Virus record (IMG/VR): IMGVR_UViG_3300047550_003451
Coordinates: 1-61,697 of that record
DNA from: a virus
Lineage: Duplodnaviria; Caudoviricetes
Reading direction: 5' to 3' (one strand)
DNA length: 61,697 bases
Made by a program: the position numbers and the translations under genes. Under the pieces are notes generated by a model. That model was not told where the DNA came from. It searched no databases and saw only the letters and a list, made by a program, of their open reading frames with translations. This document shows positions 1 to 61,697 of the stretch, piece by piece (within the stretch, counting starts at the first letter, position 1; each line of letters begins with the position of its first letter).

Positions 1-212
1 GCGACGCCTGCGGCACAACACAGCACAGAGACACGAATGCAGCAGTGAACATCCGCAATTGGGGACATCAACAATGGACAATAGATCATGCAGGGCAGGA
101 ACTGCCCCAAGCGCCTGTGGATGTGATCACAGATATTCTAACTCATTGGGGTCTGCTGTCAGCCAATACGATCAAGCAGCAAGCCACAGCCCTTTAGGGC
201 GTGGTAGTTCAC
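1..212 (+). mobile_element. tnpB: 3' end of IS200/IS605-family element: tnpB C-terminus (Zn-finger/RuvC-III) plus right-end hairpin
   Basis: Translates to DACGTTQHRDTNAAVNIRNWG... (TnpB 'RDxNAAxNI' motif); ends in GCCACAGCCCTTTAGGGCGTGGTAGTTCAC. Truncated by window start. Confidence 0.88.
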
Positions 213-3967: not shown

Positions 3968-4268
3968 TCTTATATTTTTTAACAAAGGGACTATATGCTC
4001 CTCTGTTGCGGATATTGATAGCGCCATTCAAGTGGGCATCTATTTCATATCCACAACTCAAACACGAGAATCGTTCGCCTTGGCGCGATTGCTTGTGTTT
4101 GACCCCGCATGCACTGCAAGTTTGCGATGTGTATGCTGCATGTACGCGAGTTATCCGGACGCCGTTCTCTTCGCATGCATGTTCTATCCTTTGCTGGGCC
4201 AAGCCCACGCGCCAGAATTGATTCCGTCTACCCCAACGATTGGGAGAGAACTGAATTGTCTCCCACAC
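3948..4268 (-). pseudogene. tnpB: TnpB/Cas12f-like C-terminal fragment (different lineage from the other tnpB remnants)
   Basis: VHAAYTSQTCSACG...FSCLSCGYEIDAHLNGAINI; N-terminal two-thirds missing. Confidence 0.8.
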
Positions 4269-8459: not shown

Positions 8460-8500
8460 ACATTGGTCCCTATTGATCTTAATATCTATATTTATGTCTC

Positions 8501-8586
8501 GCCGCTATCCATCCAGGAAATCTAGCCCTTTGGCTTTCCTTGACAGATTGTGAACTACCACAGCCTAAAGGGCGTGGTAGTTCACA
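8501..8586. repeat. IS605-type left-end remnant (minus strand) plus palindromic double right end
   Basis: GCCGCTATCCATCCAGG...TGGCTTTCC (8501-8539) and TGTGAACTACCAC-N12-GTGGTAGTTCACA (8549-8586). Confidence 0.8.
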
Positions 8587-8625: not shown

Positions 8626-9058
8626 ATGATTGTTCCTGTGCAAAATTATATCAAAAACCATTGGCCCACAGCCAAGTGCATAGCTGATGCTGGCTGGGCT
8701 ATGCTGGCTGGTGCGTTGGCCTACAAGTGCCAAAGGCAGGGCCATCATCTTGTCAAGATCAATCAGTTGCTACCCAATAGCAAAAACCTGTATAGCATGT
8801 GGCACCCGCAAAAGTCACATGGATCTCAAGCAAAGAGAATACCATTGTGATCTTTGTGGAATCACTCAGCACAGACACACTAATGCAGCCATCAATATCC
8901 GCAACTGGGTACATCAACCGTGGACAATAGATCACGCAGGGCAGGACCTGCCCCCTGCGCCTGTGGATGTGATCACAGATATTCTCTACAATTGGGGTCT
9001 GCTGTCAGTGACTACGATCAAACAGCCAGCTGTTGGTGTTCACACCAACAGTAGTTCC
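8626..9058 (+). pseudogene. tnpB: Frameshifted tnpB 3' half with alternative right-end hairpin
   Basis: IADAGWAML..LAYKC / KTCIACG...YHCDLCG...HRHTNAAINIRN in two frames; ends CTGTTGGTG-TTCA-CACCAACAG-TAGTTCC. Confidence 0.88.
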
Positions 9059-9199
9059 TGGAATCCTATGCTTGGGCAAGCAAATACCTGGAAAACCCAT
9101 GAGAAAATTATTGGTTTTGTTGATCCTAAAAACTGGTTGACTGATTTCCGATTGGTGCTATATTGAATAGGTAAGCTGAAACAGAGGAGCAAAACAGCT

Positions 9200-14204: not shown

Positions 14205-14765
14205 TTATTTTTCCTGGTTCAAATCTACCAACAGCCAGTTTACTTGCGCTTGCATCAACAGTTGTTGACTCAGTTGTATTTGAGGCTGCCATTTTTGGAA
14301 AAATGGCAGGCTGGGATCCATACATGCTTGATCCACCAACACATGGCTGATTCCGCTCTGGATGATAGCCCTGGAACAATCGCAACACGGCCAATGAGTC
14401 ACAGCAAGTGTACAACCATCACAGCTGATACCATTACGTGCGCAGCTGTAGATCACATTTCTTTCTGCATGTTCAAATGTCCAGGATTTGTAGGGTTGTT
14501 CTATATCCAAATATTTCTGATCATCCAATCCTCGTGGAATACCATTGTATCCAAACCCTCGAGGATTGCGGTTGTGATCAAAAATCACTGCACCCACTTT
14601 TGTTTGGTCCTTGCTCCATGTGGCCACTTGATGTGCCAACAATAACCATCTTTTGTTCCACTGGTGATCAAAAATCACTGTACCCACTTTTGTTTGGTCC
14701 TTGCTCCATGTGGCCACGGGATGTGCCAACAATAACCATCTTTTGTTCCACTTGTGAAGTACCAC
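14205..14765 (-). CDS. dCMP deaminase, with 30-aa N-terminal duplication and a MITE inserted after codon 3
   Basis: WSKD..KVGAVI, GYNG, HAERN, PCCDC. Native start TTG AGT TAC with GGAGG RBS lies at 15058-15079, beyond the MITE. Confidence 0.88.
   Translation of the reverse strand: MVLHKWNKRWLLLAHPVATWSKDQTKVGTVIFDHQWNKRWLLLAHQVATWSKDQTKVGAVIFDHNRNPRGFGYNGIPRGLDDQKYLDIEQPYKSWTFEHAERNVIYSCARNGISCDGCTLAVTHWPCCDCSRAIIQSGISHVLVDQACMDPSLPFFQKWQPQIQLSQQLLMQAQVNWLLVDLNQEK
14574..14753. repeat. Tandem 90-bp duplication
   Basis: 14574-14663 and 14664-14753 are near identical; in frame. Confidence 0.92.
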
Positions 14766-15057
14766 GCCCTCTAGGGATGTGGCTTCCTGCTAGATTCCAG
14801 TTCACCTTTAGCCAATGGGCTTATTCATTGGTGTGTTCCGGTCCACAGGCGGTATTTTTTTACGGACTTGTGGCACTTCCTGCCCTAGTCCCTGCGGTAT
14901 TGCTACCGGGATATCCCAAGCCCCTTAGGGCTCTTGCTACATCACTAATATTGTTTATACATAGCGGTTAACACAAATGCAACCAGATTCAAAAAATATT
15001 TGCGTCACAAACCGCCATCCATCCCGGCTAAAGCGCCCTGGCTTTCCGCGGCGGGAG
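14754..15057 (-). mobile_element. Non-autonomous IS605-type MITE with omegaRNA-like scaffold, copy 1 (304 bp)
   Basis: TTAC target at 15061-15058; left end CTCCCGCCGCGGAAAGCCAGG...; right end ...GTGGTACTTCAC; near identical to 25913-26220 and 51441-51742. Confidence 0.88.
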
Positions 15058-15138
15058 GTAACTCAACGATTTATCCTCCGTTGATTGAATATGCACAAGA
15101 ATAATCTAAATAGATACATATGTCAAAAGGACCAATGC

Positions 15139-15650: not shown

Positions 15651-16048
15651 ATGAACTACTGTTGGTGTAAACACCAACAGCTGGCTGTTTGATCGTAGTC
15701 ACTGACAGCAGACCCCAATTGTCGAGAATATCTGTGATCACATCCACAGGTGCTTGGGGCAGTTCCTGCCCTGCATGATCTAGTGTCCACGGTTGATGTC
15801 CCCAGTTGCGGATATTGATGGCTGCATTAGTATGCCTGTGCTGAGTGATTCCACAAAGATCACAATGGTATTCTCGTTGCTTGAGATCCATGTGACTTTT
15901 GCATGTGCCACATGCACTGCAGGTTTTGCTGCTGGGTAGCCACTGATTGATCCGAATGAGATGATGCCCTTGCCTTTGGCACTTGTAGGCCAACGCACCA
16001 TCCAGCATTGCCCAACCTGCATCTGCTATGGCCTTGGCTATGGGCTTG
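15651..16048 (-). pseudogene. tnpB: tnpB 3' remnant with alternative right-end hairpin
   Basis: Nearly identical to 8626-9058 (WLPSSKTCSACG...TNAAINIRNWG); ends CTGTTGGTGTTTACACCAACAGTAGTTCAT. Confidence 0.88.
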
Positions 16049-16290
16049 CTCTTGCGCGTATCTGTTGGGCTCTAGCCACAACAGGCTTGCGCAGGGAAAG
16101 ACTAATCCTAAATCTATATTGCAATCACATGCTTTTAATCTTATGCTAAGCGATCCAGAGGTGGCAACATATAAATAATTGATACACGGACAAGAAGGCT
16201 CTTCGTTCTAATGCTTGCCTTCCATGGGGTTGAAAGGCCTCTTCTGTTGACATTAGCATGATCAACGTTGGAACATGGAAGGGAAAACGA

Positions 16291-24157: not shown

Positions 24158-25091
24158 TGCGGATAAGCTCCAATTCTACTAGAGTGGCTGCCATGAGAAT
24201 TTCTGGATCAGCTGCAATAGAATGGTCCCGCAATCTGTTGGCTATCACCACAATAGCCTGATTTTGTTTTTGATCCGTGTTGCCCCACCAGTCCAGATTA
24301 CGATAGAGCAGTCTGTAGAATTCTTCGTATTCGTTGATTTGAATTTTGCTGCTCAATAATTTTCTAGCTTCAGTTATGCGACCTTGCTTGAACAAACTCA
24401 CAGCAGCCACCATATATTCACTGGTGCCACTCACAGTGTCCCCACTGGGTTTATTCAACTTGCCATTGATACAATTTTGTTGCAACATGTTAATACATTT
24501 TCGCAAATCTGGATAAGCTGTGTCAACATAATCGTCCAATATGGCAAGATTGCTTTCATTCAAGTCAACACCTTCTTTGACCAAAATTGTGGCAATCCGT
24601 TCAAAATACTGTGCGCGATCCAAACTTTGAATTTCAAATGTTTGACACCGACTTTTGATGGGAGGAATAATCTTGTGGCTGAGATTGGCTGTAAAGATAA
24701 ACCTAGCAACTCCGCTGTAGGTTTCCATCATGTTTTTTAGTCCAGCCTGTCCATTGGGAGAAAAATAGTCTGATTCATCAATCATCACATACCGGAAATT
24801 GCCCATGGCCATGGTACTAACAAAATTTTCCAAGTCGCGCACTACATCAATACCATTGTCTGTACATCCATTCACAAATTTCACATCACTACTGTGCACC
24901 CCCAATAGCTTGAGCAACATAAAGCACAAACTGGTTTTGCCAGTCCCTTGAACTCCTGTGATGCACAAATGGGGGATTCTACCTTCGGCTACCCAAGATT
25001 CCACTTGGTTTCTTTGATGGATACTACTCCACACATAATCATCTAAATTTTGAGGACGATACTTTTCTACCCATAGGTCACTGCTGATCAT
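24150..25091 (-). CDS. Clamp-loader subunit (RFC-small/T4 gp44-like AAA+)
   Basis: WVEKYRP, GVQGTGKT, IDESD, SRC motif, DLRKCIN. Confidence 0.92.
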   Translation of the reverse strand: MISSDLWVEKYRPQNLDDYVWSSIHQRNQVESWVAEGRIPHLCITGVQGTGKTSLCFMLLKLLGVHSSDVKFVNGCTDNGIDVVRDLENFVSTMAMGNFRYVMIDESDYFSPNGQAGLKNMMETYSGVARFIFTANLSHKIIPPIKSRCQTFEIQSLDRAQYFERIATILVKEGVDLNESNLAILDDYVDTAYPDLRKCINMLQQNCINGKLNKPSGDTVSGTSEYMVAAVSLFKQGRITEARKLLSSKIQINEYEEFYRLLYRNLDWWGNTDQKQNQAIVVIANRLRDHSIAADPEILMAATLVELELIRNG

Positions 25092-25153
25092 TTGTCACTC
25101 CTTTAATCTATGATGGTGGGGTTCACAGCCTGTGTCAACTGCCAACTAGACAC

Positions 25154-25180
25154 AAAAAGGGAGAGCCAGTCTCCCTTTTT
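25154..25180. terminator. Bidirectional intrinsic terminator
   Basis: AAAAAGGGAGA-GCCAG-TCTCCCTTTTT. Confidence 0.7.
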
Positions 25181-25207
25181 CCGTGGAATTGTTTTCCTCT
25201 TGTACAG

Positions 25208-25534
25208 TTATTCAAACACCAACAAAATATCCAGTGGGTCTACCATTCTTACAACCATGACTGGCTGATTGGCGATCTGTACTCTCACTCCTCTGCTCCA
25301 TCTACCATGAGCGACCAATATTTTGTCACCAGGTCTAATATAATCAATTTCTCTACCCACAGCATACACAGTGCAATATCGGGGTCTTATTCCACTGGGC
25401 TTGCCATCATCATCAGGTATTATTATGCCACCAGGGGTCTTGCTAGACCCGTGCTCCATGTTGGTTACCAAAACTTTGTTTTTGAGGGGCACAATTTCTG
25501 CCTGTACACTCCAATCATAAGGTTCACTGGTCAC
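25208..25534 (-). CDS. groES: Co-chaperonin GroES-like protein
   Basis: PLKNKVLV...TPGGIIIPD...VYAVG...PGDKIL. Confidence 0.82.
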   Translation of the reverse strand: MTSEPYDWSVQAEIVPLKNKVLVTNMEHGSSKTPGGIIIPDDDGKPSGIRPRYCTVYAVGREIDYIRPGDKILVAHGRWSRGVRVQIANQPVMVVRMVDPLDILLVFE

Positions 25535-25898
25535 TGTCTACTATCTTTCTTGAGCTCTTGGTAACAATCACACCTTGTTCCACCAGGTCACTTACTGTGG
25601 GAAAATCTTGATCATGTACTTTTTTAGTAGGGGTAGTGGCAATAGGATCAGGTTCAAGTGTTTGTTTGATACTGGCTGTTTGTTGCACTTGTTGTTGTAA
25701 TGCTCGTTTGCGAGCCCATTCAGCCTCCACTTGTTCTTGCGTTTTGAGGATTGTGCCATTGTCTCCCAATAGATCTCCTCGCACATTTGTACGAGTATTA
25801 CCCAGTGTGGGTTGATAGGGGTTCCTATCTGCAAGAGCAGAGAAATCCACAGGTTCTCCTCTCATGCTCAAATGTTGACGTCTCATTACTCTGGCCAT
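25524..25898 (-). CDS. Hypothetical phage protein
   Basis: AAGGA RBS directly after the MITE right end; SMRGEPVDF...GN...NVRGDLLG motif. Confidence 0.7.
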   Translation of the reverse strand: MARVMRRQHLSMRGEPVDFSALADRNPYQPTLGNTRTNVRGDLLGDNGTILKTQEQVEAEWARKRALQQQVQQTASIKQTLEPDPIATTPTKKVHDQDFPTVSDLVEQGVIVTKSSRKIVDSDQ

Positions 25899-25912
25899 TT
25901 TGTGTCCTTTTG

Positions 25913-26220
25913 GTGAACTACCACGCCCTCTAGGGCTGTGGCTTCCTGCTAGATTCCAGTTCACCTTTAGTCAATGAGTTTAGGCATTGGTGTGTGTTCT
26001 GGTCCACAGGTGATATTTTTTACGGACTTGTGGCACTTCCTGCCCTAGTCCCTGCGGTATTGCTACCGGGATATCCCAAGCCCGTTAGGGCTCTTGCTAC
26101 ATCACTAATATTATTTATACATAGAGGTTAACACAAATGCAACCAGATTCAAAAAAATAGTTGTGTTACAAGCCGCTATCCATCCAGGGGCTCTAGGCGC
26201 CTGGCTTTCAGAGGCGGGAG
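25913..26220 (-). mobile_element. Non-autonomous IS605-type MITE with omegaRNA-like scaffold, copy 2 (308 bp)
   Basis: TTAC target 26224-26221; both ends intact; same internal sequence as copy 1. Confidence 0.88.
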
Positions 26221-26227
26221 GTAATAT

Positions 26228-26746
26228 TTAGGGGTTTGTAGTCATGCTTGTTTTGAAAAATTCACTGGGATCCAAATCATAATCCAATGGATTGATTTTG
26301 TTCAAGCCAATCACATAAAGCACAAAACAACTCACACTGCTGCCTCGGCCCACACCCCAAACTAGGTTTTCTTTGGTCCATGTGTCTACCAAATAGATCA
26401 AATGCTTGAAAATGTGTTCCACATCCAGCTGTTGAATGATGTCCAATTCTATTTTTGCCCTGGCTTGTTCCTCTGGTGTTTGGCAAAGGGCTAACACATG
26501 AGAATGCAAATCTATACTAGCATAATCTTCAGGAGTAAACCATTCATTGAGATTGAATGATGGCTGCTGCCATGTGAAAGGCCATGTGTCCAAATATTCA
26601 CTCATTTGTAGATATTGATCTTTGGCACCAGAATCTTGCCATTCAAATTGAGCGTTTGCTAAATTGTTTGTATATGCCAATTCTATAATACCCTGATTGT
26701 TCACATGGCTCACACCATGCTCATCAAAAAATTGAAAATCGTTCAC
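26228..26746 (-). CDS. dnaE: DNA polymerase III alpha (DnaE) fragment of a split polymerase
   Basis: WGVGRGSSVSCFVLYVIGL.KINPLDYDL matches the DnaE GxGRGS...LxITxxDP motif; only 172 aa. Confidence 0.75.
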   Translation of the reverse strand: MNDFQFFDEHGVSHVNNQGIIELAYTNNLANAQFEWQDSGAKDQYLQMSEYLDTWPFTWQQPSFNLNEWFTPEDYASIDLHSHVLALCQTPEEQARAKIELDIIQQLDVEHIFKHLIYLVDTWTKENLVWGVGRGSSVSCFVLYVIGLNKINPLDYDLDPSEFFKTSMTTNP

Positions 26747-27048
26747 GATATGGGATTGAAACCTTTGCTTGTGGATATCACACCAGTATCATTTGGTTGA
26801 TCATCATCCAGTGGATCTGTGTTGATCACAACTCCACTTTGCATATTTTTCACAAGTGTATTCAACTTGCCGGCCCTCTCTTGTTTTTCTTGATTGATTT
26901 CCTCCAAATAGGCCTGTAACTGTTGCCATACCAATGGATTATGTTGTCCCGATCTGTGAATCATTTGCATGCGTTTGTGGATTTCGGCACTGCGTTTTTC
27001 AAGATCTTCATAGCTCATGGCTTGAATATTTGTAGGTAGAGAATTCAT
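26743..27048 (-). CDS. Hypothetical coiled-coil protein
   Basis: Stop overlaps the dnaE-fragment start. Confidence 0.6.
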   Translation of the reverse strand: MNSLPTNIQAMSYEDLEKRSAEIHKRMQMIHRSGQHNPLVWQQLQAYLEEINQEKQERAGKLNTLVKNMQSGVVINTDPLDDDQPNDTGVISTSKGFNPIS

Positions 27049-27167
27049 GCTAGCAACCCTTTTGCTTGATTCTAGTACAATCATTCCCCCATGTCAACAA
27101 ATTCAAGGATGGCTCAATTTGTGAACTCTATACCAGTGAGTGTGAAACTACAATGTCCCAAGACACT

Positions 27168-27198
27168 GCCCACAGCCCTTTAGGGCGTGGTAGTTCAC
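27168..27198 (+). repeat. Solo IS605-type right end
   Basis: CCACAGCCCTTTAGGGCGTGGTAGTTCAC. Confidence 0.85.
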
Positions 27199-27312
27199 AA
27201 ACAAAAAGTGTAATTTGTCCTTTAGAACCTGATATTATACCTCATTTTCCTGGGAGGATGATCCTGGCTGGATCTGACCAAATATACGAGGGGTAGTAGC
27301 CATATGTGTCTC

Positions 27313-30165
<2,853 letters not shown>

Positions 30166-30308
30166 GCCAATTCACTCTTGATGTTGCCATATTTAAACAA
30201 TTTGTCAAAATAATTTTCAATAACTTGCACTGTTGACCCAAGAGATTGTTACTTCTCAAGTGCAATAGTCTATTGCACTTGTGGACTCTATTAAAACGTG
30301 TTTATTAC

Positions 30309-30620
30309 CTCCCGCCGCGGAAAGTCTAAGCGCGGCCTACAGTTAAACCTGTGTGATATGTGGTACACGCAAAAGTCACATGGATCCCCAACCAACAATA
30401 CCATTGTGATGATTGTGGAATCTCCCAGCAAATGGACACAAATGCAGCCATCAATATCAAGAACTGGGAACAACAACAGATCATGCAGGGCAGGACCTGC
30501 CCCTACGCCTGTCTTGTGGTCACAGATATTCTCACTCATGGGGGTCTGATGTCAGCCACTACGATCAAGCAGGCAGCCACATCCCTAGAGGGCATGGTAG
30601 TCTACAGCCGTGGTAGTTCA
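30309..30620 (+). mobile_element. Internally deleted IS605-type element (left end + tnpB 3' remnant + right end)
   Basis: TTAC|CTCCCGCCGCGGAAAG; YHCDDCG...DTNAAINIKNW; ends GTGGTAGTTCA. Confidence 0.85.
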
Positions 30621-38848: not shown

Positions 38849-39036
38849 GTGAACTACTGTTGGTCTAAACACCAACAGCTTCCTGCTTGATCGTAGTGGC
38901 TGACAGCAGACCCCAATGAGTGACAATATCTGTGACCACATCCACAGGCGCTGGGGGCAGTTCCTGCCCTGCATGATCTAGTGTGCACGGTTGATATCCC
39001 CAATTGCGAATATTCACTGCTGCATTTGTTCGTGAT
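38849..39036 (-). pseudogene. tnpB: tnpB 3' remnant plus right end
   Basis: TNAAVNIRNWG...; ends CTGTTGGTGTTTAGACCAACAGTAGTTCAC. Confidence 0.85.
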
Positions 39037-42765: not shown

Positions 42766-43152
42766 TCAGACGCGCAAATCGCGTCTGACTGTTCTTTCTA
42801 TCAGTTTCAAGATTTCCTGTTGCTGATGGGGAGTGACAGGCGTTGTTTGTAGAATCTGTGCATCGTCAAACAATCCTTGGATCTGATCAATTGCTTGTTG
42901 CTGATTGGGTGCAATTACAAATGTCATCAAGTGGATGTCAGCAATAAAATTATTTTGGATATGTTCCAGCAACTGAGAGTTTTGCGATATCCACGCCTGC
43001 TCCAATGTTTGCTGCGTGACATTCATGGTGCTGACGCTGTGTGTACGTGGATGGTAGTCCGTGCCCTCTTTCAATATCCAAAAATCCCATGGAGTTTGGA
43101 TCTCTTTTTCACTCCATGTGCGCCATTTAATATAATATATTTGTTCCATCAT
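42766..43152 (-). CDS. Hypothetical protein (in frame with upstream tnpB remnant)
   Basis: Probable start MMEQIYY; the preceding 33 aa of the tracked ORF are TnpB-derived. Confidence 0.55.
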   Translation of the reverse strand: MMEQIYYIKWRTWSEKEIQTPWDFWILKEGTDYHPRTHSVSTMNVTQQTLEQAWISQNSQLLEHIQNNFIADIHLMTFVIAPNQQQAIDQIQGLFDDAQILQTTPVTPHQQQEILKLIERTVRRDLRV

Positions 43153-43433
43153 TGCTGTATCCAAGTCACTTATGCTAGGTTGTAGCACTTGACTGTAGGT
43201 ATCTGATAACCACAGGTTGTGCTTCTTCAATTCAGTCAGTTGTTTGCACATGTCAAACTGCCAAACAAACTTTTTGGTATTGGCATATTCATCAATGTTG
43301 ATCTTGAGTTAATAATTGTATAGATATCACACTGCTCCAACCACAGAACGCATTTGTTGCTGCTGTTGTGGGGTTGGATAAATCCTGTATCGATAAATCT
43401 ATTTATATAATTCAATCACAAGCCTCTATCCAT
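43153..43433 (-). pseudogene. tnpB: tnpB N-terminal remnant with left-end remnant
   Basis: YRYRIYPT/QQQQQMRSVVGAV*YLYNY*LKI...MCKQLTELKK..WL..YSQVLQ.SI.DLD.A; inner left-end sequence GATGGATAGAGGC upstream. Confidence 0.8.
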
Positions 43434-43516: not shown

Positions 43517-45460
43517 ATGAATCTGTTACAGGAATACCAAAATAATTTTCGTCAAGTGCAACAACAGGAATATTCCCTGCTGGAATATTTGGAATTATGC
43601 AAACAAGACCCATTGGCTTATGCAACTGCGGCTGAACGAGTGTTGAATGCCATTGGTGAACCCACTGTGATTGACACCAGCAAAGAAGACAGATTGAGTC
43701 GCATATTCATGAATAGAACAATTCAAGTATGGCCTGAGTTTGCTGAATTTTACGGCATGGAAGAAACTATAGAACGAGTGGTGGGTTATTTCAAACATGC
43801 AGCACAAGGCCTGGAAGAAAAGAAGCAAATCTTGTATTTGTTGGGGCCTGTGGGCGCAGCCAAAAGCAGTTTGGCTGAAAAAATCAAAAGCTTGGTAGAA
43901 CGGCACCCCATTTATGTTCTCAAGGCGCAATCCATGATCAGCCCAGTTTTTGAAAGCCCATTGGGATTGTTTGATCCTCATTCAAATATTACACAAAAAA
44001 TACAACAGACCTATGAAATTCCTGCGAGATATTTTACTGGACTGCCCAGTCCATGGGCACTCAAGAGGTTGCAGGAAATGCAGGGAGATATCAATCAATT
44101 CTCTGTGGTTAAAATTTGGCCCAGCAAACTCAATCAGGTGGCTGTGGCAAAAACTGAACCTGGTGATGAAAACAATCAGGACATCAGTTGTTTGGTTGGT
44201 AAAGTGGATATCCGTCAATTGGAACACTACAGTCAAAATGATCCTGACGCCTACAGTTACAGTGGGGCGTTGTGCAGAGGCAATCAGGGTGTGACTGAGA
44301 TGGTGGAAATCTGGAAAGCCCCCATCAAGGTTTTGCATCCTTTGTTGACTGCTACTCAGGAGGGCAACTATGTGGGCACGGAAGCCATAGGAGGAATACC
44401 CTTTCAAGGTATAGTGTTTGCTCACAGCAATGAGAGTGAATGGCAAACTTTCCGTAATAATAAAACCAATGAAGCCTTTCTGGATCGCATTTGTGTGATC
44501 AAAGTACCCTATTGTTTGCGTACAACTGAGGAACAAAAGATCTACGAAAAATTGTTGCGTAACAGCAGTTTGGGTCATGCCCCATGTGCACCCAAAACCT
44601 TGGAAATTCTCAGTCAATTTTGTGTGCTCACCAGGCTGCGTGATCATGAAAACAGCACACTGTGGAGCAAAATGCGAGTTTACAATGGTGAAAATATACG
44701 GGACACTGATCCACGCGCCAAAACCATCGTAGAATACAAAGAAACTGCTGGTGTGGATGAAGGCATGGAAGGCATCAGCACCAGGTTTGCATTCAAAATA
44801 CTCAGTCAAACTTTCAATTTTGACACACATGAAGTGGCTGCAGATCCAGTGCACCTCATGTATGTTTTGGAGCAAGCAATCAAAAGAGAACAATATCCAG
44901 AAGAACAACAAAACAAATATTTGGAATTTATCAAATCCCATATTACTCCCAAATACATGGAATTTTTGGAAAAAGAATTACAAAAAACGTATTTGGAAAG
45001 TTATGATGAATATGGTCAAAATATCTTTGATAGATACACAGCCTATGCAGATGCGTGGATCAGCGACGCTGATTACAAGGACCCTGACACAGGACAAATG
45101 CTCAATCGAGATCATCTAAACCGGGAATTGGAAAAAATTGAAAAGCCGTCAGGTATTGCCAATCCTCGTGATTTTCGCCATGAGTTTGTTAATTACGTGC
45201 TGAGAGCCAGAGGACGTGTGGAGAATGCAGGCAACAATCCCAAATGGACTGATTATGAAAAATTCCGCCAAGTGATTGAGAAAAAGATTTTCAGCAGCAC
45301 AGAAGAATTACTGCCAATCATCAGTTTTGGTAGCAAAAAAAGCAGTGAAGACATGGCAAAACATGAGGGGTTTGTGCAACGCATGGTATCTCAAGGTTAT
45401 ACTGCCACTCAGTGCAGAAGACTTGTGGAATACTATATTAGGCAAAGCAAAAGCAGCTGA
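43517..45460 (+). CDS. yeaG: PrkA/YeaG family AAA+ Ser/Thr kinase
   Basis: AAQGLEEKKQILYLLGPVGAAKSS, EPGDENNQDIS.LVGKVDIR, HPLLTATQEGNY, NEAFLDR. Confidence 0.95.
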   Translation: MNLLQEYQNNFRQVQQQEYSLLEYLELCKQDPLAYATAAERVLNAIGEPTVIDTSKEDRLSRIFMNRTIQVWPEFAEFYGMEETIERVVGYFKHAAQGLEEKKQILYLLGPVGAAKSSLAEKIKSLVERHPIYVLKAQSMISPVFESPLGLFDPHSNITQKIQQTYEIPARYFTGLPSPWALKRLQEMQGDINQFSVVKIWPSKLNQVAVAKTEPGDENNQDISCLVGKVDIRQLEHYSQNDPDAYSYSGALCRGNQGVTEMVEIWKAPIKVLHPLLTATQEGNYVGTEAIGGIPFQGIVFAHSNESEWQTFRNNKTNEAFLDRICVIKVPYCLRTTEEQKIYEKLLRNSSLGHAPCAPKTLEILSQFCVLTRLRDHENSTLWSKMRVYNGENIRDTDPRAKTIVEYKETAGVDEGMEGISTRFAFKILSQTFNFDTHEVAADPVHLMYVLEQAIKREQYPEEQQNKYLEFIKSHITPKYMEFLEKELQKTYLESYDEYGQNIFDRYTAYADAWISDADYKDPDTGQMLNRDHLNRELEKIEKPSGIANPRDFRHEFVNYVLRARGRVENAGNNPKWTDYEKFRQVIEKKIFSSTEELLPIISFGSKKSSEDMAKHEGFVQRMVSQGYTATQCRRLVEYYIRQSKSS

Positions 45461-46749
45461 TGAGTACTATAATTGACCGGCGTCTCAATCAGGGGCAAAA
45501 AAATCTAAGCAACAGGCAAAGATTTATCAAACGCAGCCGGGAGCATATACAAAAAAGCATACGTGAAAATTTACAAAATCGCAGCATACAGGATGTACAC
45601 AGTGGTGAAAAGGTCAAAGTTCCCACTGACAGTATTAGAGAACCCACTTTTGGGCATGATTGGCAGTCAGGTACAAAAAAACGTGTGTTACCAGGCAACA
45701 AGGATTATGTGCCCAGTGATCGGATCAGTCGTCCAGAGGGACAAGGATCCGGATCAGGCACTGGAAACCAGGCCAGCAACGATGATCAAACATTTGAGGA
45801 TGATTTTGCCTTTACGTTGACCAAAGAGGAATTTTATGATCTGTTTTTTGAAGATTTAGAATTGCCTGATCTTGTCAAAAAACAACTCAAACAAACCAGC
45901 AAATGGGAAGTCAGACGCGAAGGCATCAGCACTGTGGGCAACCCCAGCAACTTGAATGTCATACGCACAATGAAAAGCAGTTTGGGTCGTAGATTGGTTT
46001 TGCGTAAACCACATGAAAAACAGTTGCAAGATCTCATGGATCAACTGGATCAACTGGATGAGCTTGACCCACTTCGTCCGCAGTTGGAACAACAAATACA
46101 AGCACTCACAAGCAAAGTGCGCAGTGTGTCTTATGTGGATCCCATTGATTTGCGATACAATGTTTTCAACAAACGTAGAGTACCCAGCACCAGTGCAGTG
46201 ATGATTTGCATCATGGATGTGAGTGGCAGCATGGATGAACACAAAAAAGATTTGGCCAAAAGATTTTTCATGCTGCTGTATTTGTTTTTACAAAAAAAAT
46301 ATGAAAATGTGCATGTGGAATTTGTAAGACATCATACTGAAGCCAGTAGAGTGGATGAACATACATTTTTTTACGATAAATTAACAGGTGGTACAATTGT
46401 AAGCAGTGCTCTAGAACTCACCAAAGAACAAATTTTACCAGAATATGATTCTCATACACACAACATTTATATATGTCAGGTGAGTGATGGAGACAATTGG
46501 GAAGATGATAATCCCAAATGTAGACAAATATTACTGGATGATTTGTTGCCCGCTGTACAATATATGGCATATATAGAAATTACTGACAGTAAATTCGCAG
46601 AAGAATATCCATTGCTAAACTACTACAATAGCAGATTGTTTAATACCTACCAAACTGTGCATCATAACAATCCCAAACTACAAATAGCCAAAGTGGCCAC
46701 TGCCAACGACATCTACAAAGTTTTTAGGAACTTGTTCGAGAAAAAATAA
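45460..46749 (+). CDS. yeaH: YeaH/YhbH (DUF444) vWA protein
   Basis: IIDRRLN...NRQRF, DLELPDL, MDVSGSM, SDGDNW. Confidence 0.95.
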   Translation: MSTIIDRRLNQGQKNLSNRQRFIKRSREHIQKSIRENLQNRSIQDVHSGEKVKVPTDSIREPTFGHDWQSGTKKRVLPGNKDYVPSDRISRPEGQGSGSGTGNQASNDDQTFEDDFAFTLTKEEFYDLFFEDLELPDLVKKQLKQTSKWEVRREGISTVGNPSNLNVIRTMKSSLGRRLVLRKPHEKQLQDLMDQLDQLDELDPLRPQLEQQIQALTSKVRSVSYVDPIDLRYNVFNKRRVPSTSAVMICIMDVSGSMDEHKKDLAKRFFMLLYLFLQKKYENVHVEFVRHHTEASRVDEHTFFYDKLTGGTIVSSALELTKEQILPEYDSHTHNIYICQVSDGDNWEDDNPKCRQILLDDLLPAVQYMAYIEITDSKFAEEYPLLNYYNSRLFNTYQTVHHNNPKLQIAKVATANDIYKVFRNLFEKK

Positions 46750-47282
46750 TGGACAGTACAATTGATCAATCATTGTGGGACAAGGGTATTTGTATGGTGT
46801 TTGGAGAAATTGACGATTGTACCAGTCGCCAAGTGGCTGAATTTATTTTACACCATAACCTACAATCAAAGTGTGACCATCTACAGTTGGTGATCAACAG
46901 TCCTGGTGGATGTTTGGTCAACAGTTGGTGTATTGTGGATCTAATAAATATCAGCACATTGCCAGTATATACCTTGGGCATGGGACAGGTCAGCAGTGGT
47001 GCACTGTTGATTCTCATGGCCGGCAAACAGGGACATAGATATGTTAGCAAACATTGCACAATAATGACACATCAATTTATGGGTGAATGCGAAGGCAAAG
47101 TTCATGAATTGCAAGTGGTAATGCAAAATTTCCAAAAATCACATGAACAAATGATTGAATTTTATCAGCAATGCACTCTCTTGTCGCGTGAACAAATTTT
47201 AGAAAAATTGTTGCCTGCACACGATGTTTATTTAGAACCAGAACAAGCCCTGCAAATGGGCATGGTTGATAGGATAGTATAG
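46749..47282 (+). CDS. clpP: ClpP-type protease subunit
   Basis: INSPGG, GQVSSGA (Ser), MTHQ (His), HDVYL.PEQAL.MG.VD (Asp). Confidence 0.85.
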   Translation: MDSTIDQSLWDKGICMVFGEIDDCTSRQVAEFILHHNLQSKCDHLQLVINSPGGCLVNSWCIVDLINISTLPVYTLGMGQVSSGALLILMAGKQGHRYVSKHCTIMTHQFMGECEGKVHELQVVMQNFQKSHEQMIEFYQQCTLLSREQILEKLLPAHDVYLEPEQALQMGMVDRIV

Positions 47283-47283
47283 C

Positions 47284-48774
47284 ATGAGCGATCTTTTATT
47301 TGACAGTGATGATTGGACTTTTCCCATGTTGGAAAAATTTATCCTTCATGTGGAAAAAATAGGACGGGAGGATTTGGGCTTTAGCTTGTATCCAAACCAA
47401 ATAGAAGTGATCAGCAGCAGTCAAATGCTGGATGCTTACAGCAGTATTGGTATGCCTGTTATGTACAACCATTGGAGTTTTGGCAAGAAACTCATCCAAG
47501 ACACGAAAAAATATCAAAAAGGTCACATGGGCCTGGCGCTAGAAATAGTGGTCAACACCAATCCTTGTATTGCCTATCTCATGGAAGAGAACAGTAGTAT
47601 GATGCAACTGTTGGTGTTGGCACATGCTAGTGTGGGACACAATTTTTGTTTTGCAAACAATTATATGTTCAAAACATGGACTGATGCAGACAGCATCATT
47701 GACTATCTCAATTTTGCCAAAAATTATATTGCTGAGTGTGAACAAAAATATGGCATGGCTGAAGTTGAGAAAATCTTGGACAGTTGTCATGCGCTCATGC
47801 ACAATGGTGTGGATAAATATACACGTGCACGCAAATTGAATGCCAAACAGGAAGAACAACGGCAACAGGCAAGATTGGCCCACTATGCGCAAACACAAAC
47901 TGAGTTGTGGTATGTGCTGGATCCGCGAAAACAACCAGAAACCACTATGGATACAAACATTCTCACTGAGCCAGAAGAAAACATCTTGTATTTTATTGAA
48001 AAAAATAGTCCCATTCTAAAACCTTGGCAAAGAGAACTGGTGAGAATTGTACGCAAAATCAGTCAATATTGGTATCCACAAATGTTTACCAAAGTTCTCA
48101 ATGAAGGGATAGCCACATTCACACATTATTGGATTCTCAACACAATGTATGATAGAGGCCAACTGTCTGATGGACACATGATGGAGTGGCTAAGCAGTCA
48201 TGCTAATGTTGTGTTTCAACCCAGCTATGATGATCCTAGATTTCAAGGAATCAATCCCTATGCCCTGGGATTTGCAATTTTCAGAGACATACAACGCATG
48301 TGCCTTGATCCTACTCCTGAAGATATACAGTGGTTTCCCAAGTTAAAAAATGCGGATTGGAAAAGTGTTGTTCGTCAAGCTGCCACTGAATATAGAGATG
48401 ACAGTTTTGTTCAACAATGGCTCAGTCCCAAAGTGGCCAGAGACCTCAAATTATTTGGTATTAGAGACAGCCAAGACGAAAATCATATTTGGGTAGACGC
48501 TATCCACAATGAACAAACTTTTGTAAACCTGCGTTTGATGCTATCAGAACAATATGATGTGAATGCACACATGCCCACTATACTGGTCACCAAAGCTGAT
48601 CTAAAAGGAGATCGCACTTTACATTTGGAACATTTGAGACATATGAATCGCGATTTGGACAACAATACTACAACCATCCTTGCCCATGTTCACAGATTGT
48701 GGGGTTATCCGGTCAAACTAAACAGTGTGACTGCCCAAAAACATATCATGCAAACATTCAACTATAGTGGATAA
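47284..48774 (+). CDS. ycgB: SpoVR/YcgB family protein
   Basis: YPNQIEVI...GMP.MYNHWSFGK, NPCIAYLMEEN, NEGIATF.HY, INPYALGF. Confidence 0.95.
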   Translation: MSDLLFDSDDWTFPMLEKFILHVEKIGREDLGFSLYPNQIEVISSSQMLDAYSSIGMPVMYNHWSFGKKLIQDTKKYQKGHMGLALEIVVNTNPCIAYLMEENSSMMQLLVLAHASVGHNFCFANNYMFKTWTDADSIIDYLNFAKNYIAECEQKYGMAEVEKILDSCHALMHNGVDKYTRARKLNAKQEEQRQQARLAHYAQTQTELWYVLDPRKQPETTMDTNILTEPEENILYFIEKNSPILKPWQRELVRIVRKISQYWYPQMFTKVLNEGIATFTHYWILNTMYDRGQLSDGHMMEWLSSHANVVFQPSYDDPRFQGINPYALGFAIFRDIQRMCLDPTPEDIQWFPKLKNADWKSVVRQAATEYRDDSFVQQWLSPKVARDLKLFGIRDSQDENHIWVDAIHNEQTFVNLRLMLSEQYDVNAHMPTILVTKADLKGDRTLHLEHLRHMNRDLDNNTTTILAHVHRLWGYPVKLNSVTAQKHIMQTFNYSG

Positions 48775-49033: not shown

Positions 49034-49073
49034 GTGAACTACTGTTGCGTCTTTAGACGCAACAGGCTTGCGC
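49034..49073 (-). repeat. Solo IS605-type right end (third hairpin variant)
   Basis: GCCTGTTGCGTCTAAAGACGCAACAGTAGTTCAC; a degenerate relative lies at ~16060-16093. Confidence 0.75.
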
Positions 49074-49112
49074 TGCCAAGGACTAAAGCCTTGCCAACCT
49101 ATGCGTGGTCCA

Positions 49113-50371: not shown

Positions 50372-51427
50372 TCAATTGACCTTGCTTTGGGCTATGGACA
50401 GATTGTTCTGTAAGCGTTGGTCCTCTGGATTCAAGGCACATGCCTGTGTAAAATATTCCACGCTTTTGTCCCACAAACACAAATTCCAACAACTTATTCC
50501 TGCCAGATCCCATAATTTGGCCCCCCATGCTTCCACACTATCCAAGTAACTGCCTGTTTTGTGAGTGATTTTCAATGCCTCAGCACTGGCGGCCCAACAG
50601 TTCAACCAATCACATGAATGATAATAGTGCTCTGCCAACTCCAGCCAAGGTTCTCTACGATAGGGTGCTGTGTTACAAGCTGTTCGTAACCAATATATTT
50701 TTTCATTAACCAGGAATCTGCTCAACCATCTTTCTGCCTCGCTTTTTTCAGTAGCCCAAGCATGAGGCATGGCAATAAATTTTTTGAACAAGTCAACAGC
50801 TTGATCTCGATTATTTTGATAAGCATGTTCTCTAGCCAACCAAAACAATGTTTGACTGCAATCGGGATTTTCCAAGTGGCTGAGTTCCAACAAGGGCAAA
50901 TATTGCGACCTACTGGTTTTTTGTGTGTCTTGCTTTTGCCACATGGTCACATTCATATTGGTGACTGTGGTCTCATCCTGTGCGCTAAAAACAGTTTCAT
51001 GCACAGGACGCTTCCATCTATAGCCCCATCTGGCATGGCATTTGTCAGCACTGTAAACATTCAAAGGTTGATCCAGATGGTCAAAACTGTGCACATAGGT
51101 ATATCTCAAACGAGTGGCTCCTGGGATCCAGGATTTTTCCAGCTCATTGCGCCAACCAGGGGCCATCAATTCATCCATGTCCATGCTCAGACAGACATCA
51201 CAATCAGAGGGGAGCAAGCTGAGGGCAATATTTCTTGCATCATCAAATCTCCAAGGACGCACTCCAATTGTGTGCACTTTGACACCGAGATTGGTCAGTA
51301 TTTGAGGCGTATTGTCAGTACTGCCAGTATCTGCAACAACCAGATAATCAGCGTCTCTAACACTATCTGCCCACCTTTGTGCAAACTTGGCTTCATCCAA
51401 TGCAATGGTATAAACTGCGATACGCAC
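50372..51427 (-). CDS. GT2-family glycosyltransferase with TPR repeats (paralogue)
   Basis: VADTGSTD, RFDDARN, MDMDE, RW.RPVHE; TPRs; AAGGAG RBS. Confidence 0.87.
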   Translation of the reverse strand: MRIAVYTIALDEAKFAQRWADSVRDADYLVVADTGSTDNTPQILTNLGVKVHTIGVRPWRFDDARNIALSLLPSDCDVCLSMDMDELMAPGWRNELEKSWIPGATRLRYTYVHSFDHLDQPLNVYSADKCHARWGYRWKRPVHETVFSAQDETTVTNMNVTMWQKQDTQKTSRSQYLPLLELSHLENPDCSQTLFWLAREHAYQNNRDQAVDLFKKFIAMPHAWATEKSEAERWLSRFLVNEKIYWLRTACNTAPYRREPWLELAEHYYHSCDWLNCWAASAEALKITHKTGSYLDSVEAWGAKLWDLAGISCWNLCLWDKSVEYFTQACALNPEDQRLQNNLSIAQSKVN

Positions 51428-51440
51428 ACTAACTCCTTGT

Positions 51441-51742
51441 GTGAAGTACCACGCCCTAAGGGCTGTGGCTTCCTGCTAGATTCCAGTTCACCTTTAGCCA
51501 ATGAGTTTAGGCATTGGTGTGTTCCGGTCCACAGGTGAAATTTTTTTACGGACTCAGGGCACTTCCTGCCCTAGTCCCTGCGATATTGCTACCGGTATAT
51601 TCCAAGCCCGCGAGGGCTCTTGCTACATCACTAATACTAATTATACATAGAGGTTAACACAAATGCAATATGTATCAAAAAAATATTTCAATCACAAGCC
51701 ACTATCCATCCATGGCCCAAAGGCGCCCTGGCTTTCCGCGGC
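51441..51742 (-). mobile_element. Non-autonomous IS605-type MITE with omegaRNA-like scaffold, copy 3 (left tip eroded)
   Basis: Same internal sequence as copies 1 and 2; right end GTGGTACTTCAC abuts the GT gene RBS. Confidence 0.86.
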
Positions 51743-53000: not shown

Positions 53001-54161
53001 CTAAAAATTGCCAGGGACAAAATTGGTTATTTTGTCCACAGATTGTCTTATTTGTCTGGCCCCTGCAACAGTACCTAGAGGATGGCTATGAATACCACCA
53101 CCACTATTAGCTAGCCAATCTACACCAAATTTTTCAACTATGGGTGGGATTAAATCTGCTGTCAAGCCACAGCTTAAAGCTGGAGTTACATTTCCATCAG
53201 TGAGTATCTTCATTGTCATACGCAGTTCTGTTTCTGGATCTGACAGGTAACCACCCCACATGCCAGCATGTATAGTATCAACTCCACACCACGCTGCCAG
53301 TTGACAACAAAGCTGCCAAGATATGGAAAAATAGTTTTGTTGATGAGTAAACACTTTGTCACCGCTCTTTTGATAATGAATATAAAGAGGTAAATCAAGA
53401 TCACGTATGCTCTTATAAGAACCCAATCCACTCCAAACGTTGATATGCACACCACGACCTCCGTTTTGTGCAACAAATTTGGCCCTCGGCACTATATATG
53501 CAGGATCAGCATTTATACAAAAGCAGTAAACTACCTTGGTGTTATGAATGTATTTGCTGATAAGCTCCACCCTATCCTCCAATCTACAAATTGCTGGATT
53601 ACTCATGATTTCATCTTCTTTGATGAAATCAACACCACCATCCACCAGCTGTTTGGTTATGTCCAACAACTGTTGTGGAGTAATACCAGTCTTGGGCTTG
53701 ACAATGCCACCAAAAAGTGGTTTATTGTATTGCCCTGTAAGTTGACGAAACCCGCTAAGACCGTATTTGGGTTTTTGGAAATTTGCAGCAACATATGCTG
53801 GGCTGAACTCTAGACTGAGAGCACGACAGCGGCGTATGCGATCAATATCAGTGTTTCCTCCCATGATCATACAAACCAACTGGGCCACACCATCAGTGGC
53901 CCAGTCAATGTTAGCTAGGGGGAAACCAATTTCAACTAATCCTGTTGGTTTGTCAAGATCTGGCCCCTGCAAGATTTTGCAGCAATAATCTTCTATCATT
54001 TGTGGAGTTTCCCACACACTTCTCATGGATGGATTTCCCACAGACTGGCCTACTGCTAAATCGTATGCAGCTTCTCGCACAGTTGTTGAACTGGTAATTT
54101 GATATAATACATAATAGTAGTTGTCTAGATCTTTGTAATCTTGGTAAATATCCATGGTCAT
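53001..54161 (-). CDS. RuBisCO-like protein (form IV-like RLP)
   Basis: GQSVG, KPKTG, GGVDFIKEDE, HAG, PALSCG, GGGIHSHP.G; lacks HxHRA and the loop-6 Lys. Confidence 0.9.
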   Translation of the reverse strand: MTMDIYQDYKDLDNYYYVLYQITSSTTVREAAYDLAVGQSVGNPSMRSVWETPQMIEDYCCKILQGPDLDKPTGLVEIGFPLANIDWATDGVAQLVCMIMGGNTDIDRIRRCRALSLEFSPAYVAANFQKPKYGLSGFRQLTGQYNKPLFGGIVKPKTGITPQQLLDITKQLVDGGVDFIKEDEIMSNPAICRLEDRVELISKYIHNTKVVYCFCINADPAYIVPRAKFVAQNGGRGVHINVWSGLGSYKSIRDLDLPLYIHYQKSGDKVFTHQQNYFSISWQLCCQLAAWCGVDTIHAGMWGGYLSDPETELRMTMKILTDGNVTPALSCGLTADLIPPIVEKFGVDWLANSGGGIHSHPLGTVAGARQIRQSVDKITNFVPGNF

Positions 54162-55379: not shown

Positions 55380-55634
55380 GTGAACTCCCACGCCCTAAAG
55401 GGCTGTGGCTTTCTGCTTGATCGTAGTAGCTGACAGTTGTTTGCACATGTCAAACTGCCAAACAAATTTTTTGTTTATCTCTTGGAGCGGAAGGTCACTG
55501 GCTTTCAAGCCAGTGGATGGATAGCGAGTGGTATAACTAGGGATATCGTAGTTTCATCAATCTATTTATATAATCTATTCAAACAGCCGCTATCCATCCA
55601 GGGCCTAAAGGCGCCTGGCTTTCCGCGGCGGGAG
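55380..55634 (-). mobile_element. Deleted IS605-type element (left end, tnpB 5' scrap, right end) with nested inverted left-end variant
   Basis: Left end 55634-55586; TATAAATA; 55437-55473 matches the tnpB remnant at ~43240; right end ...GTGGGAGTTCAC at 55380. Confidence 0.8.
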
Positions 55635-55638
55635 GTAG

Positions 55639-57916: not shown

Positions 57917-58112
57917 GTCCCGCCGCGGAAAGCCAGGGCGCTAGAGTCCCTGGATGGATAACGGCATTTGACTCTATTATGTGTACTACCACGCCCTAAA
58001 GGGCTGTGGCTTCCTGCTTGATCGTGCTGGCTGATATCTCACTCAGGGGGGAAATGTCAGCCACTAGGATCAAGCAGCCTGCTGTTGGTCTAATAAACCA
58101 ACAGCAGTTCAC
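57917..58112. mobile_element. Mini IS605-type element: left end plus two inverted right-end segments with different hairpins
   Basis: Left end 57917-57965; minus-strand right end from 57981; plus-strand right end ending CAGTTCAC at 58112. Confidence 0.78.
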
Positions 58113-61655: not shown

Positions 61656-61669
61656 GTTGACTGTGCTAG

Positions 61670-61697
61670 GTGAACTGCCACGCCCTCTAGGACTGTG
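61670..61697 (-). repeat. IS605-type right end (element continues beyond window)
   Basis: CACAGTCCTAGAGGGCGTGGCAGTTCAC on the minus strand. Confidence 0.8.

Follow-up and report, generated by a model that had tools for sequence, protein, structure and literature searches.

IMG/VR virus record IMGVR_UViG_3300047550_003451, analysed here over its complete length as a window of 61.7 kb (61,697 nucleotides; estimated completeness ~9%), carries three copies of a short protein-free repeat. We read this repeat as a non-autonomous derivative of a TnpB-only IS200/IS605 element, of the palindrome-associated or miniature inverted-repeat transposable element type (PATE or MITE), which would carry a cassette for an omegaRNA, the guide RNA of TnpB, to be used in trans. 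We put the probability of this explanation as a whole at about 0.75. The mini-element has the ends of an IS200/IS605 transposon, defined boundaries, TTAC as its target, no coding capacity, and a scaffold that is colinear with the 3' regions of tnpB genes. A parent TnpB-only IS200/IS605 element populates this group of large freshwater phages. Judged by sequence comparison, the mini-element appears to have kept from this parent the AAAG-footed left-end hairpin, a -10-like box, an omegaRNA scaffold of ~140 nt and the right end; in place of the tnpB reading frame it has ~60 nt predicted to fold into three small hairpins. Both TnpB and TnpA must be supplied in trans, because the window holds only fragments of tnpB and no Y1 transposase. 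A minimal element that borrows both proteins had been proposed in a first-pass annotation, made from the letters of the window alone, and the ends described below agree with that proposal.

Copies, ends and parent element

When copy 1 was compared with the whole record by BLAST, it matched itself at 100%, copy 2 at 90% identity (E 3.6e-114) and copy 3 at 86% identity (E 1.6e-98), all on the minus strand and all with one layout, at the coordinates that the first-pass annotation had given (Table 1). Eight further matches were short and covered only the first ~65 or the last ~40 bases. Direct reading of the letters confirmed that the left ends of copies 1 and 2 directly follow TTAC and that the right end is TTCAC in all three copies. 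No repeat was found in the flanks of copies 1 and 2, indicating that there is no target-site duplication. In copy 3 the left end is 6 nt short at its start and TTAC is absent, so that this copy is probably no longer excisable. No open reading frame (ORF) is conserved among the three copies. The scaffold adjoins the right end in every copy, so that by position the flank would supply the guide.

Table 1. Positions in the window of the mini-element, its parts and related pieces of tnpB elements
Feature	Position	Strand	Remarks
Mini-transposon copy 1	14754..15057	-	left end from 15057, right end to 14754; after codon 3 of dCMP deaminase gene
Mini-transposon copy 2	25913..26220	-	short gap between gene for 172-aa PolIII-alpha-like protein and gene for 124-aa protein
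Mini-transposon copy 3	51441..51742	-	13 nt upstream of GTG of glycosyltransferase/TPR gene
TTAC target of copy 1, expected target-adjacent motif (TAM)	15058..15061	-	equivalent in copy 2: 26221-26224
Candidate guide flank, 16 nt, copy 2	25897..25912	-	by position only; copy 1: 14738-14753; copy 3: 51425-51440
Predicted RNA of copy 2	25913..26107	-	equivalents: ~14754-14947 and ~51441-51633
Promoter-like TTGCAT-N17-TATAAA, copy 2	26114..26142	-	also 14954-14982 and 51640-51668
3' end of cognate tnpB (residues 334-397) with scaffold and right end	1..212	+	cut by contig edge; may be intact beyond the record
tnpB C-terminal remnant, frameshifted, with scaffold	8665..9059	+	
tnpB C-terminal remnant (residues 269-397, 84% identity)	15651..16056	-	scaffold and right-end hairpin variant B
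Decayed deletion derivative	30305..30605	+	left end after TTAC, tnpB C-terminal piece, degenerate right end
tnpB C-terminal remnant with scaffold	38849..39029	-	right-end hairpin variant B
Separate simple deletion derivative	55380..55637	-	left end, tnpB start, N-terminal piece, last ~60 nt of right end; target CTAC

IS608 of Helicobacter pylori, which carries tnpA and tnpB, inserts 3' of TTAC, has AAAG at the foot of its left-end hairpin, makes no target duplication and has no terminal inverted repeats; its right end finishes TCAA. The mini-element shares the insertion 3' of TTAC, the AAAG foot, and the lack of both target duplication and terminal inverted repeats, but its right end finishes TCAC and it has neither tnpA nor tnpB.

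An intact relative was found in a related viral contig, G001. This element (L021) reads TTAC|CTCCCGCCGCGGAAAGCC..., followed by a tnpB of 397 aa and then by ...AGCAGGAAGCCACAGCCCTTTAGGGCGTGGTAGTTCAC. Its left end after TTAC and its right end, ...GTAGTTCAC, are the same as in the mini-element. The 397-aa TnpB has the Pfam domains HTH_OrfB, OrfB_IS605 and TNB, aligns with ISDra2 TnpB at E 2e-53, and has the RuvC motifs GVDVN, VETL and HRDTNAA in place (PDB 8H1J, 8EXA). In total, viral contigs contain 15 tnpB loci, some of them encoding close copies of the protein (90-93% identity) and others more distant cousins (70-74%). In 11 distinct contexts the target preceding the left end was TTAC in 7, the rest being CTAC, TTAT (twice) and TGAC. 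L021 itself (G001:22289-25339) is inserted in a long ORF with a YGDTDS-type DNA-polymerase motif, and the sequence after this motif we take to be a possible intein.

G001 also carries a Y1 tnpA, divergent to a second tnpB of 414 aa, that is, an IS605. The right end of this tnpA-bearing element finishes AGTAGTTCAC, as does that of the mini-element, and its right end ...ACCAACAGTAGTTCAC is the hairpin variant that is also found on three tnpB remnants of the window. At the left end it shares the frame CGCCGCG-xAAGCC-hairpin with the mini-element. Because both ends of the tnpA-bearing IS605 are related to those of the mini-element, it is plausible that Y1 TnpA could mobilise the mini-element in trans. 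Short matches to the left-end hairpin of this IS605 also occur at 16054-16105 and ~49034-49087; the window therefore contains traces of a second, related element family.

Besides the three copies in the window, there is a fourth in G001 (L018). L018 has TTGCAT, the scaffold and the right end, and no usable left end; at its positions 62-90, a perfect 13-bp hairpin (CAATCAATCGCCG...CGGCGATTGATTG) stands in place of the transposon left end. A blastn search of copy 1 against 50,697 phage records gave no match. Exact-pattern scans of IMG/VR with three different anchors returned L018 alone, and those of species genomes and of JGI metagenome contigs returned nothing in either set, although scans of this kind may omit near-identical records. 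Rfam reported no family at gathering score over the window, and a snoRNA match on copy 2 (12.8 bits, E 9.6) was dismissed as chance.

The right ends open onto gene starts, as the first-pass annotation had described: codon 4 onward of a dCMP deaminase gene (copy 1), a ribosome-binding site (RBS) with ATG (copy 2) and an RBS with GTG (copy 3). Copy 1 is inserted after TTG-AGT-TAC, codon 3 of the dCMP deaminase (Pfam PF00383), whose relatives begin M-S-H-K-W-N (ATG-TCA-CAT-AAA-TGG). Copy 2 lies 14 nt before AAGGA...ATG, and copy 3 lies 13 nt before AAGGAG...GTG. The same annotation had considered the copies to be aimed at gene starts, which we could not uphold. The site of copy 2 corresponds in syntenic relatives to an intergenic gap of 24 nt, TAA-TTTTAC-...AAGGA...ATG, that bears TTAC itself, and two intact tnpB copies in other contigs (L027 and L031) also lie just upstream of an ATG. 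In G001 the mini-copy and the next ATG are ~130 nt apart. For 11 right-end flanks, the window contained no second match flanked by TTAC. Most simply, the position next to gene starts results from insertion after TTAC where the intergenic gaps are very short, and not from targeting: in a tightly packed phage genome, an insertion that is tolerated after TTAC between co-directional genes must come to lie beside the following start.

Two insertion sites have peculiarities of their own. Right after the right end of copy 1, on the minus strand (14574-14753), there are two tandem units of 90 nt (14753-14664 and 14663-14574; 4 differences), which duplicate the 30 codons with which the remaining dCMP deaminase gene begins; relatives have a single unit. 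GATCAC closes each unit and CTTCAC closes the right end of copy 1, and the duplication may have arisen by unequal exchange at a TCACAA microhomology. Alternatively, it may represent a rescue of translation after loss of the RBS and start codon; unit 1 contains AAGGA, with an in-frame GTG 10 nt on. Upstream of copy 2, the 172-aa protein (26231-26746, minus strand) stands alone, and its match to the PolIII-alpha NTPase domain is confined to positions 21-102. Relatives likewise encode it by a small gene of its own: they have the same stand-alone gene of 168 aa followed by the same 127-aa gene, and truncation of a PolIII-alpha gene by copy 2 was thus ruled out.

Scaffold, 5' part and promoter-like site

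The RNA predicted for copy 2 begins with three small hairpins, followed by an omegaRNA-type scaffold composed of a GGCA..UGCC hairpin, a long arm closed by CCUGU/GCAGG, a terminal hairpin and the tail GUAGUUCAC. Its predicted fold has a z score of -3.77, and none of 200 shuffled sequences folded as well. Ten tnpB-linked 3' regions fold into three modules, of which the first is a GGGCAG-GAA-CUGCCC hairpin, the second a long arm that CCUGU/GCAGG closes and the third a terminal hairpin, with compensatory changes in 10 of 38 pairs. When these ten regions and the four mini-element scaffolds were aligned with MAFFT, they were colinear over the last ~140 nt of the mini-element. The mini-elements differ by a 15-nt insert after the first hairpin and by a long arm whose interior is different but similarly long. 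GGGCAGGAAxTGCC, C(G/A)CCTGTGGA and AGCAGGAAGCCAC are common to the mini-elements and the 3' ends of the local tnpB remnants, as had been noticed in the first pass.

We then scored 23 chosen pairs on the 14-sequence alignment. Ninety-six percent of the cells were paired and 8 of the pairs showed changes on both sides; the covariation score was reached by none of 500 shuffles, and slid partners were paired in at most 52% of cells. Among the three copies and the G001 copy, 12 of 116 paired columns were variable vs 26 of 90 unpaired columns (Fisher p ~0.001; p 0.004-0.05 when single-sequence folds were used). Between copies, the promoter and RNA parts were 89-98% identical vs 72-74% for the left-end hairpin. 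The claim that stems are kept while loops vary held for the stems listed, AGCCC-(TAAG/TAAC/TCGC)-GGGCT, CGGTA-GCAA-TACCG and CCAATG-(AATAAGCC/CCTAAACT)-CATTGG, all of which are present; it did not hold to the letter, as copy 3 has TATCG, which gives a G-U pair, and copy 2 has CATTGA, which breaks one pair.

Nakagawa et al. (Nature 2023, PMC10097598) describe for ISDra2 a scaffold that stops at the boundary of the transposon, as it does here, and a 5' region that can be dispensed with. The 397-aa TnpB is a homologue of the ISDra2 protein, and the same source places a tetraloop and a UUC at the positions where the mini-element has them, at -20..-17 and -5..-3. In the mini-element this UUC could pair with an upstream GAA, both triplets being present; the adjoining pair is C-G in 10 of the 14 sequences, G-C in 2 (copies 1 and 3) and unpaired in 2. 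The two systems differ in the expected TAM (TTAC here, TTGAT in ISDra2) and in scaffold sequence, and the pseudoknot of the mini-element is a predicted one.

From the left end to the first shared hairpin, a stretch of ~120 nt, no significant similarity to tnpB is seen. A hint from a global alignment that the 5' pieces derive from the tnpB frame was over-fitted and was rejected, as 88 of 500 shuffles scored as well locally. In the alignment with the full element, the -10-like box falls on the box there and an 'ATG TAG' relic on the tnpB start codon, and ~37 extra bases relative to the full element carry TTGCAT. The motif TTGCAT-N17-TATAA(A/T), which had been taken for a promoter, occurs at exactly 3 places in the window, namely the copies (0.06 expected; 3 reached by none of 100 shuffles). 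In the G001 mini-copy the hexamer TTGCAT is unchanged and 8 of the 17 spacer positions are different.

For the region around copy 2 we placed contigs assembled from four public runs on window positions 24800-27400. One of these, X18, is labelled RNA-Seq and is probably DNA according to its annotation. In both DNA runs, contigs from the flanks halt a few tens of bases inside copy 2, and the summed depth inside copy 2 exceeds that of the flanks several-fold, which should not be read as a copy number. Loose contig ends at 25913 (5 and 3 contigs) and 26219 (2 and 2) continue into differing flanks; the boundaries are thereby confirmed, and the element must occupy further insertion sites as well. 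The only true metatranscriptome run gave two contigs of depth ~2. The first covers 25938-26101, which is scaffold only, and the second covers 25754-25904, where the gene that follows copy 2 has its initial 150 nt. We regard these contigs as a weak hint that RNA of the mini-element is expressed.

Weighing the readings

In the trans-acting cassette reading, the cassette would be transcribed from its own promoter-like site, and its RNA would be bound by the 397-aa ISDra2-like TnpB that full-length copies in other parts of the phage genome produce. About 16 flanking bases would serve as the guide. An element-free site, consisting of TTAC plus the flank and arising after TnpA excision or present in a co-infecting relative, would then be cut by TnpB and repaired from the element-bearing copy, so that the element would be kept or spread. 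Movement would require Y1 TnpA in trans.

Guide-RNA loci of this type are already published. Altae-Tran et al. (PNAS 2023, PMC10691335) describe stand-alone omegaRNAs as evidently mobilised, lying beside effector-bearing loci and acting in trans. Like these OMEGA (TnpB/IscB) loci, the mini-element is a guide-RNA locus without effector or transposase; compared with those treated there, it is a phage element, residing in a large phage, and its 5' half consists of unrelated hairpins behind a promoter-like site. Of PATEs, Meers et al. (bioRxiv 10.1101/2023.03.14.532601) state that these 'often encode omegaRNAs', which TnpB has to use in trans. The PATE-like elements of Geobacillus stearothermophilus in that preprint are likewise protein-free and have the ends of tnpB/iscB elements. 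They differ from the phage element in type of host and in element family, and for the ends of the phage element no TnpA of proven activity is known. The published lists of PATEs and stand-alone omegaRNAs may include phage cases. What the present case adds is a remodelled 5' half, a retained tnpB-upstream region and two copies whose left end is unusable; the kind of system is not new.

Several results weigh against the cassette reading. The window contains no intact tnpB, only fragments, and neither a tnpA nor any other Y1 transposase gene. The first-pass annotation had proposed a search for empty sites in related phages, and no precise TTAC|flank site was found. In two DNA runs no contig joined across copy 2. 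Contigs G001-G005 give no empty sites because at the DNA level they have only transposon pieces in common with the window. Five syntenic relatives, one judged 76% complete, are without the element, and they do not count as precise empty sites because their flanking proteins are only 59-66% identical; for the gene downstream of copy 3 no relative was found.

The structural evidence has limits too. The 23 pairs were picked from the sequences on which they were later scored, the covariation lies mostly in the terminal hairpin of the tnpB-linked set, and within the four mini-copies none of 58 predicted pairs showed a compensatory change. A covariance model built from the tnpB-linked regions scored the copies at 35-43 bits vs 35 bits for a right-end-only derivative; it failed to set the two apart and was abandoned as a discriminator. 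Copy 3 and the G001 copy have no usable left end. The promoter is only partly as claimed, for the motif is confined to the copies and its consensus is weak: TTGCAT agrees with TTGACA at 3 of 6 positions, and a sigma-70 scanner called none of the three copies. The scaffold contig of the RNA library has 11 mismatches to copy 2 and hence stems from another copy, and at a depth of ~2 it could reflect DNA carry-over. Its end near the predicted RNA start proves nothing, because DNA contigs of another run break nearby, at 26110 and 26115, and contigs cannot show RNA ends.

A wider role is conceivable, which we consider unlikely. The phage lineage may keep the cassettes, immobile copies included, as a fixed and dispersed set of TnpB guides, resulting in RNA-guided allele exclusion, or an inter-phage gene drive, between co-infecting jumbo phages. 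Element-free alleles of related jumbo phages would be cut beside essential gene starts in mixed infections, a role beyond the repair of the element's own excision site.

The copies could instead be inert relics of past transposition, unexpressed and functionless, and similar by shared descent only. The broken tnpB pieces and unpaired ends that abound in the window fit such relics, as do the absence of compensatory changes among the four copies, the weak promoter-like site and the truncated left end of copy 3. We nonetheless judge this improbable, since the copies have diverged by 8-14% and retain 89-98% identity in the promoter and RNA parts as opposed to 72-74% in the left-end hairpin, and changes avoid the paired columns. 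Moreover, one internal design recurs at three sites of the window and one in another contig, further flanks are seen in public contigs, and a contig from an RNA library covers the scaffold.

Least credible to us is that the element has been co-opted as an expression cassette, kept mainly as a promoter and structured 5' leader of the downstream gene independently of TnpB: all three copies are co-oriented with the next gene, 13-14 nt before it or within its first codons, the three scanned intervals that contain them have no terminator-like site, the single one detected by these scans (26323-26347) being upstream of copy 2, copy 1 separates the dCMP deaminase gene from its own RBS and start, so that this gene needs transcription from or through the element, the 2 of 4 copies that have lost a usable left end still retain the promoter-like site and scaffold, and a metatranscriptome contig covers 150 nt from the start of the gene that follows copy 2, but short-gap insertion yields the position anyway, as it does for intact tnpB copies just before an ATG, the G001 copy is ~130 nt from the next ATG, relatives express the same genes without the element, and a leader role leaves the retention of omegaRNA-type modules unexplained.

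The mini-element is a clean natural example of a TnpB transposon stripped to a guide-RNA cassette, in which the coding part was lost and the region upstream of tnpB was kept. The scaffold modules it retains are those found essential in the structural work on ISDra2. The copies also show that such cassettes become more numerous within the genomes of jumbo phages, and there "restorative homing" could, on co-infection, change into a contest of one phage with another. Should the RNA be active with the 397-aa TnpB, it would provide a compact natural scaffold with a TTAC TAM.

Remnants and the source phage

Matches to tnpB fragments were located at 3-194, 8665-9040, 15670-16056, 30384-30587, 38868-39029 and 43150-43395, with a more distant piece at 3999-4187; the remnants that include scaffold or ends are listed in Table 1. 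Most of the scaffold is absent from the simple deletion derivative at 55380..55637. Two remnants are compound. At 57918-58106 a plus-strand left end abuts a minus-strand right end with scaffold, and at 8497-8585 a reversed left end lies beside a right-end hairpin, which suggests nested insertions or rearrangements between copies. A solitary right-end fragment at 27170-27198 is polymorphic in the public runs (window 27177-27237), where one run swaps 19 bases for 158 and another skips 59, with 23 other letters.

The record begins and ends within copies of the tnpB element, the 3' end of tnpB at 1-212 and a minus-strand right end at 61669-61697. The assembly probably broke at this repeat, and because both contig edges are in element copies, the record may just miss an intact tnpB.

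The window is a fragment of a large freshwater phage, as judged from its gene content, its clamp loader, the length of its syntenic relatives and the labels of public runs. Its genes code for collagen-like proteins, for very large ones, and for a PrkA-DUF444-SpoVR block, a ClpB-like ATPase, a clamp loader, and Cpn10-like, ferritin-like and RuBisCO-large-chain-like proteins. The clamp loader is nearest to those of PA5oct-like Pseudomonas jumbo phages (46% identity), and syntenic relatives of the window are up to 310 kb long. Public runs that contain the region are labelled as freshwater, lake, reservoir, sediment and aquaculture metagenomes. In species genomes the relatives of the TnpB protein are merely 35-36% identical, and the host of the phage could therefore not be named. 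Two items are unusual cargo for a phage, the RuBisCO-large-chain-like gene at 53004-54161 on the minus strand (PF00016, E 2.8e-32) and the full PrkA-DUF444-SpoVR block at 43517-48774 on the plus strand.

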